Origin: Escherichia phage vB_EcoM_NBG1
Sequence record: MH243438.1
Length of the DNA stretch: 64,000 nucleotides
Direction: 5' to 3' (one strand)
Positions 2,342 to 41,695 of this stretch are shown piece by piece. Position 1 is the stretch's first letter, and every line of letters begins with the position of its first letter. The notes beneath the pieces were generated by a model, which worked only from the letters and a program-made list of their open reading frames with translations, made no database searches and was not told the origin of the DNA. The position numbers and the translations under genes are program-made.

Positions 2342-4658
<2,317 letters not shown>

Positions 4659-4685
4659 AAATAAAGCAAATTAAGAGGAATTAAA

Positions 4686-6668
4686 ATGGCACTTCTCTCT
4701 CCGGGCGTTGAGCTCAAAGAAACTACCGTACAGAGTACTGTAGTTAATAACTCCACTGGTACTGCTGCCCTGGCTGGAAAATTCCAATGGGGACCTGCAT
4801 TCCAGATTAAACAAATCACTGATGAAGTTGCATTGGTTGATATGTTTGGTACTCCTAATACAGATACAGCAGATTATTTCATGTCTGCTATGAACTTCCT
4901 TCAATATGGTAATGACCTTCGTGTTGTACGCGCAGTTGATCGTGATACTGCTAAGAACTCATCTCCTGTAGCAGGCAATATTGAATTCACAATCTCTGCT
5001 GCTGGTAGTAACTATGCAGTTGGTGATAAAATTATCGTTAAGTATTTGACCGAAACTGTTGAAGCAGATGGTTATGTCACTTCAGTTGATGTCGATGGTA
5101 AAATTCTTAACATTTATATCCCAACCGGTAAAATTATTGCTCGTGCAAAAGAAATTAATGAATATCCGGCATTGGGTTCTAACTGGACCGCCGAAGTTGC
5201 CAGTTCTTCTTCTGGACTCTCTGGCGTTATTACAATTGGTTCTATCGTAACCGATTCAGGTATTCTGTTAACTGAAGTTGAAACTTCTGAAGAAGCTATT
5301 ACTTCTCTAACTTTCCAAGAATCTATTAAAAAATATGGTGTCCCAGGCGTAGTTGCTCTTTATCCTGGTGAACTTGGCGACCAGCTCGAAATTGAAATCG
5401 TATCTAAAGCAGACTATGACAAAGGTGCTTCAGCCCAGTTAAAAATTTATCCTGATGGTGGTACTCGTGCATCTACGGCTAAAGCAATCTTTGGGTATGG
5501 CCCACAAACTGATGACCAATATGCAATTATCGTTCGTCGTAACGATGCTGTAGTTCAGAGCGTAATTCTTTCTACTAAACGCGGTGAACGCGATATTTAT
5601 GGTAGTAATATCTTTATTGATGATTTCTTTGCTAAAGGCGCAAGCAATTATATTTTCGCTACGGCACAAGGTTGGCCAAAAGGTTTCTCTGGCGTAATCA
5701 AACTGGGTGGTGGCTTATCATCTAATGAAACGGTTGACGCTGGTGATTTAATGGAAGCTTGGGATTTGTTTGCTGACCGCGAATCTGTTAATGCGCAGTT
5801 GTTTATTGCCGGTTCTTGTGCAGGTGAATCTTTAGAAGTTGCTTCTACAGTTCAGAAACATGTTGTAGCAATTGGTGATTCTCGCCAAGATTGCTTGGTT
5901 CTTTGCTCACCGCCACGTGCAACTATAGTCGGTATTCCTGTTAATCGTGCAGTTGATAATCTGGTTGATTGGCGTACTGCATCAGGAACTTACACTGATA
6001 ATAACTTTAATGTAAGTTCTACTTATGCTGCTATTGACGGTAACTATAAATATCAATATGACAAATATAATGACGTGAATCGTTGGGTTCCGTTAGCTGC
6101 TGATATTGCAGGTCTTTGTGCTCGCACAGACAATATTTCTCAGCCTTGGATGTCTCCGGCTGGTTATAACCGTGGACAAATTCTTAACGTTATTAAGCTT
6201 GCAATTGAAACTCGTCAACCACAACGTGATCGTTTGTATCAGGAAGCTATTAACCCTGTTACTGGTACCGGTGGCGATGGATATGTTCTGTATGGTGATA
6301 AAACTGCCACTTCCGTTCCTTCACCATTTGACCGTATTAACGTTCGTCGTTTGTTCAATATGGTTAAAACGAACATTGGTTCAGCATCTAAATATCGCCT
6401 GTTTGAATTGAACAACGCATTTACCCGTTCTTCTTTCCGTACAGAGACTTCTCAATATCTACAGGGTATTAAAGCTCTCGGTGGTGTATATAACTTTAAA
6501 GTTGTTTGTGATACTACCAATAACACCCCAGCAGTTATCGACCGTAATGAATTTGTAGCTACTTTCTACTTACAACCTGCCCGCTCGATAAATTATATTA
6601 CGTTGAACTTTGTAGCAACAGCAACTGGTGCCGATTTCGACGAACTGATTGGTGCTGTAGGTGGTTAA
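4686..6668 (+). CDS. 18: tail sheath protein gp18
   Basis: 660 aa; N-terminus MALLSPGVELKETT typical of T4 gp18; AAGAGGAA RBS. Confidence 0.9.
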   Translation: MALLSPGVELKETTVQSTVVNNSTGTAALAGKFQWGPAFQIKQITDEVALVDMFGTPNTDTADYFMSAMNFLQYGNDLRVVRAVDRDTAKNSSPVAGNIEFTISAAGSNYAVGDKIIVKYLTETVEADGYVTSVDVDGKILNIYIPTGKIIARAKEINEYPALGSNWTAEVASSSSGLSGVITIGSIVTDSGILLTEVETSEEAITSLTFQESIKKYGVPGVVALYPGELGDQLEIEIVSKADYDKGASAQLKIYPDGGTRASTAKAIFGYGPQTDDQYAIIVRRNDAVVQSVILSTKRGERDIYGSNIFIDDFFAKGASNYIFATAQGWPKGFSGVIKLGGGLSSNETVDAGDLMEAWDLFADRESVNAQLFIAGSCAGESLEVASTVQKHVVAIGDSRQDCLVLCSPPRATIVGIPVNRAVDNLVDWRTASGTYTDNNFNVSSTYAAIDGNYKYQYDKYNDVNRWVPLAADIAGLCARTDNISQPWMSPAGYNRGQILNVIKLAIETRQPQRDRLYQEAINPVTGTGGDGYVLYGDKTATSVPSPFDRINVRRLFNMVKTNIGSASKYRLFELNNAFTRSSFRTETSQYLQGIKALGGVYNFKVVCDTTNNTPAVIDRNEFVATFYLQPARSINYITLNFVATATGADFDELIGAVGG

Positions 6669-37611: not shown

Positions 37612-37640
37612 TAATAATACCATACTATTCGTAAAGCATA
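37612..37640 (-). promoter_or_regulatory. candidate MotA-dependent middle promoter for gene 31
   Basis: Minus strand reads ATGCTTTAC, 12 nt, TATTAT. Confidence 0.4.
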
Positions 37641-37937
37641 TTACATAAGAAGCAAACGTTCTACCGGAGTACCATCAACCGAAATTACTTTATCAAGGCG
37701 GAAAGAACGCCACTGACCTAACTTGGTATCGAATGCTCGAACTGATTCACGAGGTTCAGAACGAACTTCTGTCGATGGGTTACTATTTTCATATTTTACT
37801 TCAAGTTCATCACGGGAGGCAAGCATCGTACGAACATCACCATTAGCCTTTTCAAATACAACACAATGAACGCCTACAGACAGAATAGTTTTAATACGTT
37901 CACGAAGAACCATAGTTTCTTGTTCAGTTAAAATCAT
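37641..37937 (-). CDS. hypothetical protein (31.1 position)
   Basis: Track start is GTG at 37949; ATG at 37937 gives 98 aa starting just after the cd stop. Confidence 0.5.
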   Translation of the reverse strand: MILTEQETMVLRERIKTILSVGVHCVVFEKANGDVRTMLASRDELEVKYENSNPSTEVRSEPRESVRAFDTKLGQWRSFRLDKVISVDGTPVERLLLM

Positions 37938-37938
37938 A

Positions 37939-38520
37939 TTATTCACCACAAAAGTTTCGAATTTGTTCCCAATTCAGAGAACGAAGATTATTACGAGAGT
38001 ACTGAATTACTTCAATACCAGCTTGTTTAAGAATGTCTGCCCAATTTTCAGGAGATCTGTCATATAATTCCGCGTATACAACCTTTTTAATACCTGACTG
38101 CGTAATAGCTTTAGTGCAATCAGGACACGGAGAAAGCGTAGTATATAACGTAGCACCTTCAATAGAATTACCTTTACGAGCTGCAAACAAAATTGCATTC
38201 AGTTCCGCATGGATTTCGTTATTGGCAGACCAGGCACTATGAGCGGCCCGATGTTCTTTAGCCAAAACAAAATTATCTGCCCGTCCAAATGCTGTAGTGC
38301 CTTCTTTATGTCCAGCAATGATGACCGGTCTTGGATTATTCTTCAACCAGCCATTTTCGGATGCATGTTCGCAACAGTTAACACCACCTGAAGGAGAGCC
38401 ATTATAACCTGTAGAAATAATGCGTCCATCTTTTTCAATGACGGCACCAACTTTCCATGAACAACATTTTGATTCTTGAGAAATCAGATATGCAATCTGA
38501 AGGTATGTGCTAGCTTTCAT
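37939..38520 (-). CDS. cd: dCMP deaminase
   Basis: 193 aa (same as T4 Cd); HAELNAI and PCPDC zinc-binding motifs. Confidence 0.9.
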   Translation of the reverse strand: MKASTYLQIAYLISQESKCCSWKVGAVIEKDGRIISTGYNGSPSGGVNCCEHASENGWLKNNPRPVIIAGHKEGTTAFGRADNFVLAKEHRAAHSAWSANNEIHAELNAILFAARKGNSIEGATLYTTLSPCPDCTKAITQSGIKKVVYAELYDRSPENWADILKQAGIEVIQYSRNNLRSLNWEQIRNFCGE

Positions 38521-39512
38521 TATTGAACCTTATTAATATAAGTTAACAGCTCTTTAGTTTGTTCCCAACTGATGCACGCATCGGTAACGGAAACGCCATA
38601 GGACATATTATCAGAAATTTTTTGATTTCCTTCATGTAGGAACGATTCTATCATAATTCCTTTGACCAAATCATTAGCTGCTAAATTTTTACCAATACCA
38701 ATTTGATTGCTATAATGCCCATCAGCGTTTGCATGGCTACAGTCAACCATTACATAATGATTCAGACCTACTGCCCTTGCTTTGTTAGAAGCTTCTTGAA
38801 TATCAGAAGAATGATAGTTCGGGCCGTTGGTCCCGCCACGCAATACGATATGCGTATTCTGATTACCTTCAGCTTCAACAATGCCTACAGTACCATCGAC
38901 GTCCATACCCATATACCGATGAGGCCAGGCGGCACTATACATCGCGTCTGTAGCTACTTTAATAGAACCATTGGTTGCGTTCTTGAAGCCTACGCACATC
39001 GGTAGACCTGAAGCAATTTCACGATGTGTCTGACTTTCAGTCGTACGGGCGCCAATAGCAACCCATGAGAAAATACCAGAAAGATACTTAATCGTGAACG
39101 GGTCTAATACTTCAGTTGCTAATGGAAGTCCCATACGTAGAAGTTTACGACACAATGTTCGTGCAACTATAAGACCGTGGTTCATATCAAAACTTCCGTC
39201 AAGATATGGATCATTTACAAGACCTTTCCAACCTACGGTAGTTCGAGGCTTTTCAAAATAAACGCGCATCACTAACAGAACATTAGGAAGACGAGTTTGA
39301 AGTTCAGCCAAACGTTTGCCGTATTCAACAGCAGCAATAGGGTCATGAATTGAACAAGGACCTACAACAATAAGTTTGCGTGGGTCTTCACCGTTCATAA
39401 TCGAATTAACTTGTTCGCGATGAGAAGCCACTTGTGATGCGTAAGCTTCCGACAAAGGAATAATCTCAGCCAGTTCTTTTGGAGAAATAAGTTTTCTGAT
39501 GACAGGTAACAT
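38520..39512 (-). CDS. class I 3-deoxy-D-arabino-heptulosonate-7-phosphate (DAHP) synthase, AroG/F/H-like
   Basis: 330 aa with VVGPCSIHD, EKPRTTVGWKG, GARTTESQ, DCSHAN, ESFLHEGNQ, TDACISWEQ motifs collinear with E. coli AroG; AAGGA RBS; stop overlaps cd ATG (TAATG). Confidence 0.85.
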   Translation of the reverse strand: MLPVIRKLISPKELAEIIPLSEAYASQVASHREQVNSIMNGEDPRKLIVVGPCSIHDPIAAVEYGKRLAELQTRLPNVLLVMRVYFEKPRTTVGWKGLVNDPYLDGSFDMNHGLIVARTLCRKLLRMGLPLATEVLDPFTIKYLSGIFSWVAIGARTTESQTHREIASGLPMCVGFKNATNGSIKVATDAMYSAAWPHRYMGMDVDGTVGIVEAEGNQNTHIVLRGGTNGPNYHSSDIQEASNKARAVGLNHYVMVDCSHANADGHYSNQIGIGKNLAANDLVKGIMIESFLHEGNQKISDNMSYGVSVTDACISWEQTKELLTYINKVQ

Positions 39513-39632
39513 AACAATCCTTAGGAGATATAAACAGATTCTGATTCAACAATACCTTTAACCGGATTAGACAGGCTAAGTTGGTAGTGCTCAGATTTAT
39601 GACCATTCTCGATAGTAATGAGATAGCTCTCA

Positions 39633-39869
39633 TTATAGTGTTCCATATACTCGAGTTGCTTCAACAAGACCATCACTGCCTAATTTAAGATTAGTAATTT
39701 GGTCACCATCTTTAGGATTAACGATTATGAGAAAAGAACGTGGAGATTCTTGAATAACTCGTAATGTTGCATCTTGGAAACGTTCAGACACTTTATTGAT
39801 GAGTGCTTGAGCAAATTCTTTTACTTTAATCTGAAATTCGTGTACTGTAATTGGGTTTTCACTTAGCAT
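39633..39869 (-). CDS. hypothetical protein (78 aa)
   Basis: ATG start; early promoter upstream. Confidence 0.45.
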   Translation of the reverse strand: MLSENPITVHEFQIKVKEFAQALINKVSERFQDATLRVIQESPRSFLIIVNPKDGDQITNLKLGSDGLVEATRVYGTL

Positions 39870-39891: not shown

Positions 39892-39929
39892 AGAGTTATA
39901 GTATCACAACTCCACCATGTTGTAAACCA
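39892..39929 (-). promoter_or_regulatory. early promoter (GTTTAC, spacer, GTTGTGATACTATAAC)
   Basis: Read on minus strand upstream of ORF 39633-39869. Confidence 0.6.
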
Positions 39930-40205
39930 TTAAATTGCTTTGCATTCAATTTTTTGTGTACCGAAATTGATATCACACTGGATAACTAAATCACCATCAA
40001 GATCAAATACCACTATGACGTGCGCAGACCCAGGGAGAAGAGTAATAGCAATAGAATCTACTTGGTCTGGGAGCAAAGTATTGAGTACATGAGTTAGTTG
40101 AGCATGAACTCTGAGTTCGGCTGCATTATCAAGCACTTCAAACATATTATTAGCAATAATCTGACTGAAGACTACCTTTACAATTTCAGAATAAGTTGGG
40201 AACAT
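39930..40205 (-). CDS. hypothetical protein (91 aa)
   Basis: ATG start; in the cd-pseT accessory cluster. Confidence 0.45.
   Translation of the reverse strand: MFPTYSEIVKVVFSQIIANNMFEVLDNAAELRVHAQLTHVLNTLLPDQVDSIAITLLPGSAHVIVVFDLDGDLVIQCDINFGTQKIECKAI

Positions 40206-40608: not shown

Positions 40609-40609
<1 letters not shown>
40418..40609 (-). CDS. hypothetical acidic protein (63 aa)
   Basis: ATG overlaps pseT stop (TAATG). Confidence 0.45.

Positions 40610-41695
<1,086 letters not shown>

Follow-up and report, generated by a model that had tools for sequence, protein, structure and literature searches.

Among the closest described relatives of the enzyme considered here, which is encoded by Escherichia phage vB_EcoM_NBG1, are the type I-alpha synthases of DAHP, the 7-phosphate of 3-deoxy-D-arabino-heptulosonate, in Escherichia coli, AroF, AroG and AroH. 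In AroG, feedback resistance results from the substitutions D146N, M147I, P150L, L175D, L179A, S180F, A202T, F209A/S and V221A, and variants of Gln151 are also implicated. Q151 and S180, the latter through its side chain, bind the main chain of the inhibitor, and D155 forms a salt bridge stabilizing the region (PMC9529685). In phages, a DAHP synthetase domain was noted in ORF 64 in the genome paper of phiC120 (PMC8022965). In a 2025 study of Klebsiella phages, an orthologue from Kanagawavirus KLB31 was classed as an auxiliary metabolic gene, with the hypothesized role of helping to make aromatic amino acids or products derived from them; the auxiliary-gene screen of this phage returned the DAHP synthase alone and no other shikimate enzyme (PMC11845039). 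In the literature we found only such passing mentions and no functional study of any member of the phage family (PMC8022965, PMC11845039). Here we analyze a stretch of 64,000 nucleotides of vB_EcoM_NBG1 DNA (sequence record MH243438.1), referred to below as the window, which carries the gene at positions 38520..39512 on the minus strand.

We suggest that this gene probably encodes a catalytically competent, feedback-insensitive DAHP synthase, which would be made early in infection and would keep chorismate synthesis going. The 330-residue open reading frame (ORF) begins with ATG and is the sole ORF at this place in the ORF listing. Profile, catalytic residues and predicted fold all identify its product as a type I-alpha DAHP synthase. 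The sequence-only reading, made from the letters of the window and its ORF list, had placed the protein in this class I (AroF/AroG/AroH-type) on the basis of six motifs, VVGPCSIHD, EKPRTTVGWKG, GARTTESQ, DCSHAN, ESFLHEGNQ and TDACISWEQ, and all of them are found in the translation. The profile search that it proposed gives the same answer, as Pfam PF00793 (DAHP_synth_1) matches with E = 5e-75 (252 bits vs the threshold of 25.5).

All four NCBIfam matches of the phage protein are DAHP synthase models. The aroFGH equivalog TIGR00034 scores 428.5 bits (cut-off 173.2) and the subfamily model PRK12755 455.9 bits (cut-off 343). The AroG-specific NF006723 (364.5 bits vs 568) and the AroH-specific NF009396 (386.7 bits vs 463) stay below their cut-offs and no AroF-specific equivalog is among the NCBIfam matches, PRK12755 alone being passed at that level. 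Among proteins of solved structure the nearest in sequence is AroF of E. coli (6AGM, E = 4e-105), and end-to-end alignment gives 51, 47 and 44% identity with E. coli AroF, AroG and AroH, respectively. The coding sequence and the codons of its metal ligands, the coordinates of the latter being checked codon by codon, are as follows.

38520..39512, minus strand: DAHP synthase coding sequence, 330 residues and stop, type I-alpha, PHROG 5045 clade (ORF listing, Pfam, NCBIfam, PHROG, AlphaFold2).
39354..39356, minus strand: codon of Cys53, metal ligand (AroG Cys61).
38733-38735, minus strand: codon of His260, metal ligand.
38646-38648, minus strand: codon of Glu289, metal ligand.
38580-38582, minus strand: codon of Asp311, metal ligand.

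Cys53, His260, Glu289 and Asp311 correspond to Cys61, His268, Glu302 and Asp326 of AroG, the numbering of which is used below unless stated otherwise. For the analysis of conservation we aligned 24 phage-clade sequences and 99 other homologues over 350 positions. The cysteine of VVGPCSIHD, proposed in the sequence-only reading as a metal ligand, is invariant in both groups (24/24 and 99/99). C61, H268, E302 and D326 are kept in all 24 phage-clade sequences, as are the PEP- and E4P-binding residues R92, K97, R99, T100, R165, K186 and R234 (PEP, phosphoenolpyruvate; E4P, erythrose-4-phosphate). The KPRT motif of DAHP synthases, to which R99 and T100 belong, is present within KPRTTVGWKG. The AlphaFold2 model of the phage protein (predicted local distance difference test, pLDDT, 85.6; predicted template modelling score, pTM, 0.88) is a (beta/alpha)8 barrel with the beta6a/6b hairpin, whose strands lie at residues 209-214 and 220-224. 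In Foldseek it superposes on the DAHP synthase structures of Neisseria meningitidis and E. coli (4HSO, 1KFL, 8E0Z and others) with TM scores of 0.92-0.95 and root-mean-square deviations of 1.8-2.0 Å. Judged by these residues and the fold, the protein is almost certainly an active DAHP synthase, which would convert PEP and E4P to DAHP and inorganic phosphate.

What sets the phage clade apart is the region where the E. coli enzymes bind their inhibitors. We defined as clade-defining a position where the bacterial consensus reaches at least 85% and a differing phage consensus at least 90%. Only 7 of the 350 positions are of this kind, namely P150I, Q151K, D155G, L156I, S180P, F209Y and T223A. Ile and Lys at positions 150 and 151 are each found in 23 of the 24 phage-clade sequences, against Pro in 91/99 and Gln in 98/99 of the closest bacterial homologues, and position 180 is Pro in 24/24 phage-clade vs Ser in 97/99 bacterial sequences. 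The altered segments were located by alignment.

39087..39092, minus strand: codons of Ile141-Lys142, in place of AroG Pro150-Gln151 (AroF Pro151-Gln152), inhibitor-site residues.
39075-39077, minus strand: codon of Gly146, in place of AroG Asp155.
39000..39002, minus strand: codon of Pro171, in place of AroG Ser180 (AroF Ser181).
38913..38915, minus strand: codon of Tyr200, in place of AroG Phe209.
38871-38873, minus strand: codon of Ala214, in place of AroG Thr223.
39483..39512, minus strand: short N-terminus, 10 residues ahead of the conserved Pro (AroG Pro19).

The N-terminus is altered as well. The conserved Pro19 is preceded by 10 residues in the window protein and by 17-19 in the E. coli enzymes; the range is 8-12 in the phage clade and 16-53 in 98 of the 99 other homologues, the sole exception (P0030) being itself a protein of a Providencia phage. 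Thus, the equivalents of AroG Asp6 and Asp7 and of AroF Asn8 are absent. Five of the seven clade-defining positions are among the 11 AroG positions linked to feedback resistance in the literature (hypergeometric p = 2e-7). A feedback-regulated isoenzyme is recognized by the N-terminal segment together with Pro150, Gln151, Ser180 and Phe209, and the phage protein has Ile, Lys, Pro and Tyr at these four positions. Since the regulatory segment is lost and the inhibitor-site residues are replaced, the enzyme is predicted to ignore Phe, Tyr and Trp. Evasion of host feedback control had been a secondary idea of the sequence-only reading; the pocket substitutions and the short N-terminus now lend it support from sequence, and the insensitivity itself, by analogy with the E. 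coli AroG mutants, appears to us somewhat better than an even chance.

The enzyme could instead be an ordinary feedback-regulated isoenzyme, AroF-like and Tyr-sensitive, helping only by extra copies when transcription of the host aro genes is no longer possible. Its nearest solved and curated relatives are AroF and PRK12755, Gly occupies position 211 as in Tyr-type enzymes, the regulatory site keeps its beta6a/6b hairpin, and many deposited records are labelled 'Tyr-sensitive'. These labels, however, are transferred names and not tests, the N-terminal segment is missing, and Q151, S180, P150 and F209 are all replaced, at positions where single substitutions abolish the inhibition of AroG. We consider this explanation unlikely.

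Several observations weigh against the feedback-insensitive enzyme. The confidence of the model is lowest exactly at the remodelled loop (residues 136-145, pLDDT < 50). Within the phage clade the new pocket residues vary less than the protein does on average (mean entropy 0.55 vs 0.95); simple loss is expected to drift, thus the site may keep some function, and its conservation would be explained by a structural role or a new binding role no less well than by plain loss. The pocket is also more variable outside the phages than the closest homologues imply. Among the 150 best, mutually diverse matches from a search of 1.84 billion representatives, position 180 is Ser in 97 and Pro in 22, position 209 is Phe in 114 and Tyr in 19, and P150 and Q151 are each kept in just 84. 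Therefore Pro180 with Tyr209 also occurs in some cellular lineages, and the universality of the 'bacterial' pocket residues is weakened. Phage RB69 has no DAHP synthase gene, hence the gene is dispensable and any benefit from it is conditional. Finally, activity, inhibition or expression data for any member of the phage clade were not found in the literature. None of the 150 representatives has more than two of six phage-type states, with the alignment of divergent and fused proteins being less reliable, and the full combination is thus specific to the phage clade. We note separately that the best match in the 1.84-billion-protein library (P0121, 799 residues, 533 bits) was hit by the query in two stretches, which suggests a tandem or duplicated DAHP synthase or a gene-calling fusion.

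The gene as such is not new. Among T4-like phages it is already catalogued as an auxiliary metabolic gene. It is also common and annotated in their genomes, which the sequence-only reading had itself named as the circumstance that would undercut novelty. The protein matches phrog_5045, 'phospho-2-dehydro-3-deoxyheptonate aldolase', category auxiliary metabolic gene, with E = 2.5e-182 over 330/341 positions. The members of this family include JS09, PhAPEC2, Shf125875 ('AroG'), phiC120, FP43, Mizar, PEi20, CIP9, EcS1 and X20; the window protein is the same gene in the same locus with no difference of substance. With tblastn against 50,697 phage records a full-length homologue was found in 212, in 139 of them at 95% identity or more, mainly in the genus Mosigvirus. 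The count of 212 is slightly inflated by AGRM01000002.1 (H37), a 691-kb Salmonella enterica contig, and by a 2.4-kb 'Salmonella phage' record (H38), both database contaminants with ordinary bacterial DAHP synthase genes (52% and 45% identity). Identity is 100% in six records of five phages, FP43, F2 (GenBank and RefSeq copies), AV117, JQD51 and Mizar. Over 5 kb the region shares 98% identity with FP43 and with other phages, whose relatives JS09, PhAPEC2, ST0 and Shf125875 belong to Mosigvirus. Deposited records name the gene 'AroG', 'aroF ... Tyr-sensitive' or 'DAHP synthetase'.

The gene occupies the same locus, between cd.2 and cd within the cd-pseT interval of Straboviridae, in seven further phages from six genera, namely CIP9 and PEi20 (Kanagawavirus), EcS1 (Kagamiyamavirus), X20 (Winklervirus), kv_tblp8 (a Klebsiella phage), PSTRCR_121 (Gualtarvirus) and SdyM_006 (Bragavirus). 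It directly adjoins cd in CIP9, PEi20 and kv_tblp8. An ORF of about 112 residues, the size of cd.1, lies between the two in EcS1, X20 and SdyM_006, and a homing endonuclease in PSTRCR_121. Mosigvirus phages are without the cd.1-sized ORF that parts the genes in Winklervirus, Kagamiyamavirus and Bragavirus. In a neighbour-joining tree the 25 phage-type sequences are monophyletic, and no bacterial sequence falls among them. Identity among these proteins falls to 56-77% across phages; the nearest non-phage proteins are about 50-55% identical and longer (341-388 vs 319-343 residues). The GC content of the gene is 41% vs 38% for the window, and comparison with orthologues gives a ratio of nonsynonymous to synonymous substitution rates (dN/dS) of 0.16-0.23, dS being close to saturation. 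The DAHP synthase gene is thus a long-resident, syntenic phage gene under purifying selection. Recent capture from a host was considered and rejected, given the identity of only about 51-53% to enterobacterial AroF and at most about 55% to any bacterial protein, the monophyly of the phage clade and the phage-like GC content.

The surroundings of the gene are formed by the following features.

39518..39523, minus strand: Shine-Dalgarno sequence TAAGGA, 5 nt 5' of the DAHP synthase ATG, in the sequence CTCCTAAGGATTGTT-ATG.
38518..38522, minus strand: TAATG junction of the DAHP synthase stop and the cd start (sequence).
37939..38520, minus strand: cd, dCMP deaminase, 193 residues (Pfam dCMP_cyt_deam_1, E = 3e-26; annotation of near-identical phages).
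39521..39676, minus strand: 51-residue ORF with GTG start between cd.2 and the DAHP synthase gene (ORF listing; annotated in Mizar as hypothetical protein).
39633..39869, minus strand: cd.2 homologue, DUF7320 (Pfam and PHROG matches; annotation of T4 and RB69).
39898..39926, minus strand: candidate promoter of sigma-70/T4-early type in the cd.3/cd.2 gap (consensus scan, sequence).
39930..40205, minus strand: cd.3 homologue, DUF7355 (Pfam and PHROG matches; annotation of T4 and RB69).
40609..41508, minus strand: pseT, polynucleotide kinase/phosphatase, which bounds the interval on its upstream side (Pfam HAD_PNKP, E = 4e-58, and AAA_33).
37641-37949, minus strand: 31.1 homologue, 102 residues, downstream of cd (Pfam WYL_2).

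In the direction of transcription the order in the window is frd, td, nrdA, nrdB, denA, rnlA, alc, spanins and pseT, followed by a cd.4-like gene, a 74-residue ORF, cd.3, cd.2, the 51-residue ORF, the DAHP synthase gene, cd, 31.1, 31 and rIII. In T4 the order is cd, cd.1, cd.2, [Pe133295], cd.3, cd.4, cd.5, pseT and there is no DAHP synthase gene, just as the sequence-only reading had supposed. The same reading had set the gene inside a nucleotide-metabolism operon with nrdAB, td, frd and cd. This is too strong, because the gene is separated from nrdB, which is upstream, by about 6.6 kb and more than 12 genes, among them denA, rnlA, alc, those of the spanins, pseT and a number of small ORFs. 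A candidate promoter of T4-early type is located between cd.3 and cd.2.

The stop of the DAHP synthase gene does overlap the start of cd, as had been observed: TAA (38522..38520) and the ATG of cd (38520..38518) have one base in common, so that the minus strand reads ...CAATAATG, and the Shine-Dalgarno sequence of cd, AAGG, sits within the final DAHP synthase codons. The overlap is not a mark of this gene, since in RB69, the type Mosigvirus, cd.2 adjoins cd with the same one-base overlap. Translational coupling to cd was therefore dropped as a clue to function, being uninformative in view of RB69 and of the intervening ORFs in other genera. At this locus of RB69 (L004, NC_004928; 13743-14503) cd is annotated with 169 residues, compared with 193 in the window and in T4, perhaps because its start codon was called differently. 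The DAHP synthase gene has its own Shine-Dalgarno sequence, TAAGGA, which contains the stop codon of the upstream 51-residue ORF, and in phage Mizar a ribosome-binding site is annotated at the equivalent position. This ORF, a putative gene, shares 44 bases with the 3' end of cd.2 and is absent at this position from RB69 and T4. The start of the 31.1 homologue overlaps the end of cd by 11 bases; WYL_2 is an Sm-like SH3 beta-barrel, and a weaker PHROG match of this protein is labelled 'tail fiber protein'.

The candidate promoter reads GTTTACA, 17 nt, TGaTACTAT (39926..39898, minus strand), and the early promoter Pe133295 of T4 occupies the corresponding cd.3/cd.2 gap. The MotA-box pattern TGCTTNA-N11-13-TANNNT is enriched in the window, with 16 sites where 3.8 would be expected, and the minus strand carries 15 of these. 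No MotA-type middle promoter was found directly upstream of the DAHP synthase gene; the nearest such sites lie within pseT (40892-40916, minus strand) and just upstream of gene 31 (37614-37638, minus strand). Judging from the strand and the promoter-like site, the gene is probably expressed in the prereplicative, early phase.

We suggest that the enzyme would work as follows. The DAHP synthase would be made early, after the shutoff of host transcription, from the prereplicative strand downstream of the T4-early-type promoter candidate. As a metal-dependent enzyme it would condense PEP and erythrose-4-phosphate with the formation of DAHP and phosphate. The phage would thus contribute to the shikimate pathway only its committing step, the one that controls flux, and the six remaining steps to chorismate would be carried out by the pre-existing host enzymes. 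When aromatic amino acids are abundant, the host isoenzymes AroF, AroG and AroH are inhibited and, before infection, repressed by TyrR and TrpR. In the phage enzyme the N-terminal regulatory segment is lost, the main-chain holders are replaced (Gln151 by Lys, Ser180 by Pro), and so are the residues lining the pocket (Pro150 by Ile, Phe209 by Tyr, Asp155 by Gly); Phe, Tyr and Trp feedback would be ignored and chorismate would be made even with plentiful aromatic amino acids. The benefit to the phage may come from aromatic amino acids, from folate and p-aminobenzoate (pABA), from quinones or from the simple removal of E4P. In the large ORFs of the window, Phe makes up 4.2% of the residues, Tyr 4.0% and Trp 1.3%. 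The Tyr content of E. coli proteins is about 2.8%, so that Tyr looks higher in the window, which is a hint only.

The sequence-only reading had preferred one of these products. It proposed that the flow from chorismate through pABA to folate is kept up for the synthesis of thymidylate and hydroxymethyl-dCMP, which would explain the place beside cd. T-even phages make heavy use of the folate-dependent td and gp42 reactions, the adjacency to cd is conserved in several genera, and an IMG/VR contig (L026) has a DAHP synthase beside a thymidylate kinase. Position, however, is a weak guide to function in T4-like genomes, where this interval is plastic and holds small ORFs, and the gene is parted from cd in four genera by a further ORF or a homing endonuclease. 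Folate is catalytic and needed in small amounts, and the fusion of giant-virus DAHP synthases to prephenate dehydratase points to phenylalanine and not to folate. There is also no accompanying pab or fol biosynthetic gene, and the screen of KLB31 found the DAHP synthase alone (PMC11845039). The sequence evidence favours a link from folate to thymidylate no more than the other chorismate products, and we hold this explanation to be decidedly unlikely.

It is improbable that the enzyme serves as a carbon sink. An unregulated DAHP synthase would consume E4P, together with PEP, irreversibly and would pull the transketolase and transaldolase equilibria to pentose phosphates, giving more ribose-5-phosphate for nucleotides, with the shikimate products being incidental. 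This would fit a deregulated enzyme and the surrounding nucleotide-metabolism genes, and it has a parallel in cyanophages, which carry pentose-phosphate auxiliary genes such as talC. The sequence, however, does not discriminate it from the pathway role, DAHP would accumulate or pass through the host AroB anyway, and each turnover costs one PEP.

A further, similarly faint chance is that the rebuilt pocket is a new site, in which inhibition by aromatic amino acids has been swapped for control by another ligand or partner. The substituted residues (Ile, Lys, Gly, Pro, Tyr and Ala) are fixed, and they vary less than the remaining protein across phages of only 56-77% identity. Candidates may be a metabolite of the nucleotide pool or a phage protein, and the flux of shikimate and E4P would then be coupled to phage DNA synthesis.

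Last, there is very little room for a protein that is not a DAHP synthase in practice, having either changed its substrate to arabinose-5-phosphate like a 3-deoxy-D-manno-octulosonate 8-phosphate (KDO8P) synthase or become a decaying, non-catalytic passenger: PF00793 does span both families, and Mosigvirus phages arabinosylate their DNA with a sugar donor of unclear source (PMC6024577), but the protein has every DAHP synthase-specific residue, with the KPRT motif and the metal Cys among them, the curated models that match best are the DAHP synthase equivalog and subfamily, RB69, in which arabinosyl-hydroxymethylcytosine was found, has no such gene, and decay is at odds with the dN/dS of 0.16-0.23 and the invariant catalytic residues. 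KDO8P synthase membership was rejected because the NCBIfam matches are all DAHP synthase models and KPRTTVGWKG is present, and the link to arabinosyl-hydroxymethylcytosine was rejected with the absence of the gene from RB69 and the DAHP synthase-specific motifs of the protein. The idea of this link had come from the co-occurrence of both traits in Mosigvirus, Winklervirus and some Acinetobacter phages, and from the use of arabinose-5-phosphate by KDO8P synthase, a relative of DAHP synthase.

Returning to the predicted feedback insensitivity, we compared the enzyme with other viral copies. The DAHP synthases of IMG/VR giant-virus contigs (GVMAG, putatively viral) share the intact catalytic residues with the phage enzyme. 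They differ in identity (41-48%), in their ordinary allosteric residues, and in being about 650 residues long with a fused prephenate dehydratase (PDT) domain; they look like an independent acquisition. IMG/VR viral DAHP synthases, mostly from giant-virus contigs, generally keep the ordinary PQ / GLS.P / F.G motifs. Fusions of DAHP_synth_1 with prephenate dehydratase were seen in L062 (3980-5938), where the gene lies beside a PIF1-like helicase and a methyltransferase, and in about 15 other IMG/VR loci, including L037, L045, L047, L055, L056, L060, L063, L064, L066, L068, L069, L072, L074 and L075. These fusions suggest that at least some (putative) viruses target phenylalanine synthesis. L025 and L026 are intermediate, with a 349-residue DAHP synthase of the pattern DPFTPNY / GLPMPI / YLG (in L026, a contig of 261,788 bp, at 3971-5020). 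On either side of it in L026 are genes for a topoisomerase IB of eukaryote type, a NUDIX protein and the thymidylate kinase. This form may be a stage between the cellular and the T4-like-phage forms or an independent lineage.

The gene itself is thus ordinary, and an aromatic-pathway role has already been suggested in print for an orthologue. What deserves to be carried forward is that the allosteric site has been remodelled throughout the clade, in a pattern which suggests that phages naturally reached the solution of metabolic engineers for deregulating the shikimate pathway. If so, this would be a clear case of a virus overriding host end-product control and not merely adding an enzyme, and it would offer a naturally optimized feedback-resistant DAHP synthase for the production of aromatic compounds. 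RB69, without the gene, and most other Mosigvirus phages, with it, make a natural comparison.

Compared with E. coli AroF (6AGM/6AGL), AroG and AroH, the phage enzyme has a collinear barrel, identical metal ligands and PEP/E4P residues and the same predicted fold. It is shorter by about 9 residues N-terminally and about 15 C-terminally and differs in the inhibitor site by P150I, Q151K, D155G, S180P, P182C and F209Y. Engineered feedback-resistant DAHP synthases (AroG P150L, S180F, D146N and F209A; AroF N8K and P148L) are used for the production of aromatic compounds; the data on AroF N8K and on the deletion of Ile11 reportedly go back to Weaver and Herrmann in 1990 and Jossek et al. in 2001. 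The phage and the engineered enzymes have changes at positions 150, 151, 180 and 209 and in the N-terminal segment in common. However, the engineered enzymes carry single laboratory substitutions, whereas the phage clade has a fixed and conserved combination of natural substitutions plus a deletion, with a predicted effect of the same kind.

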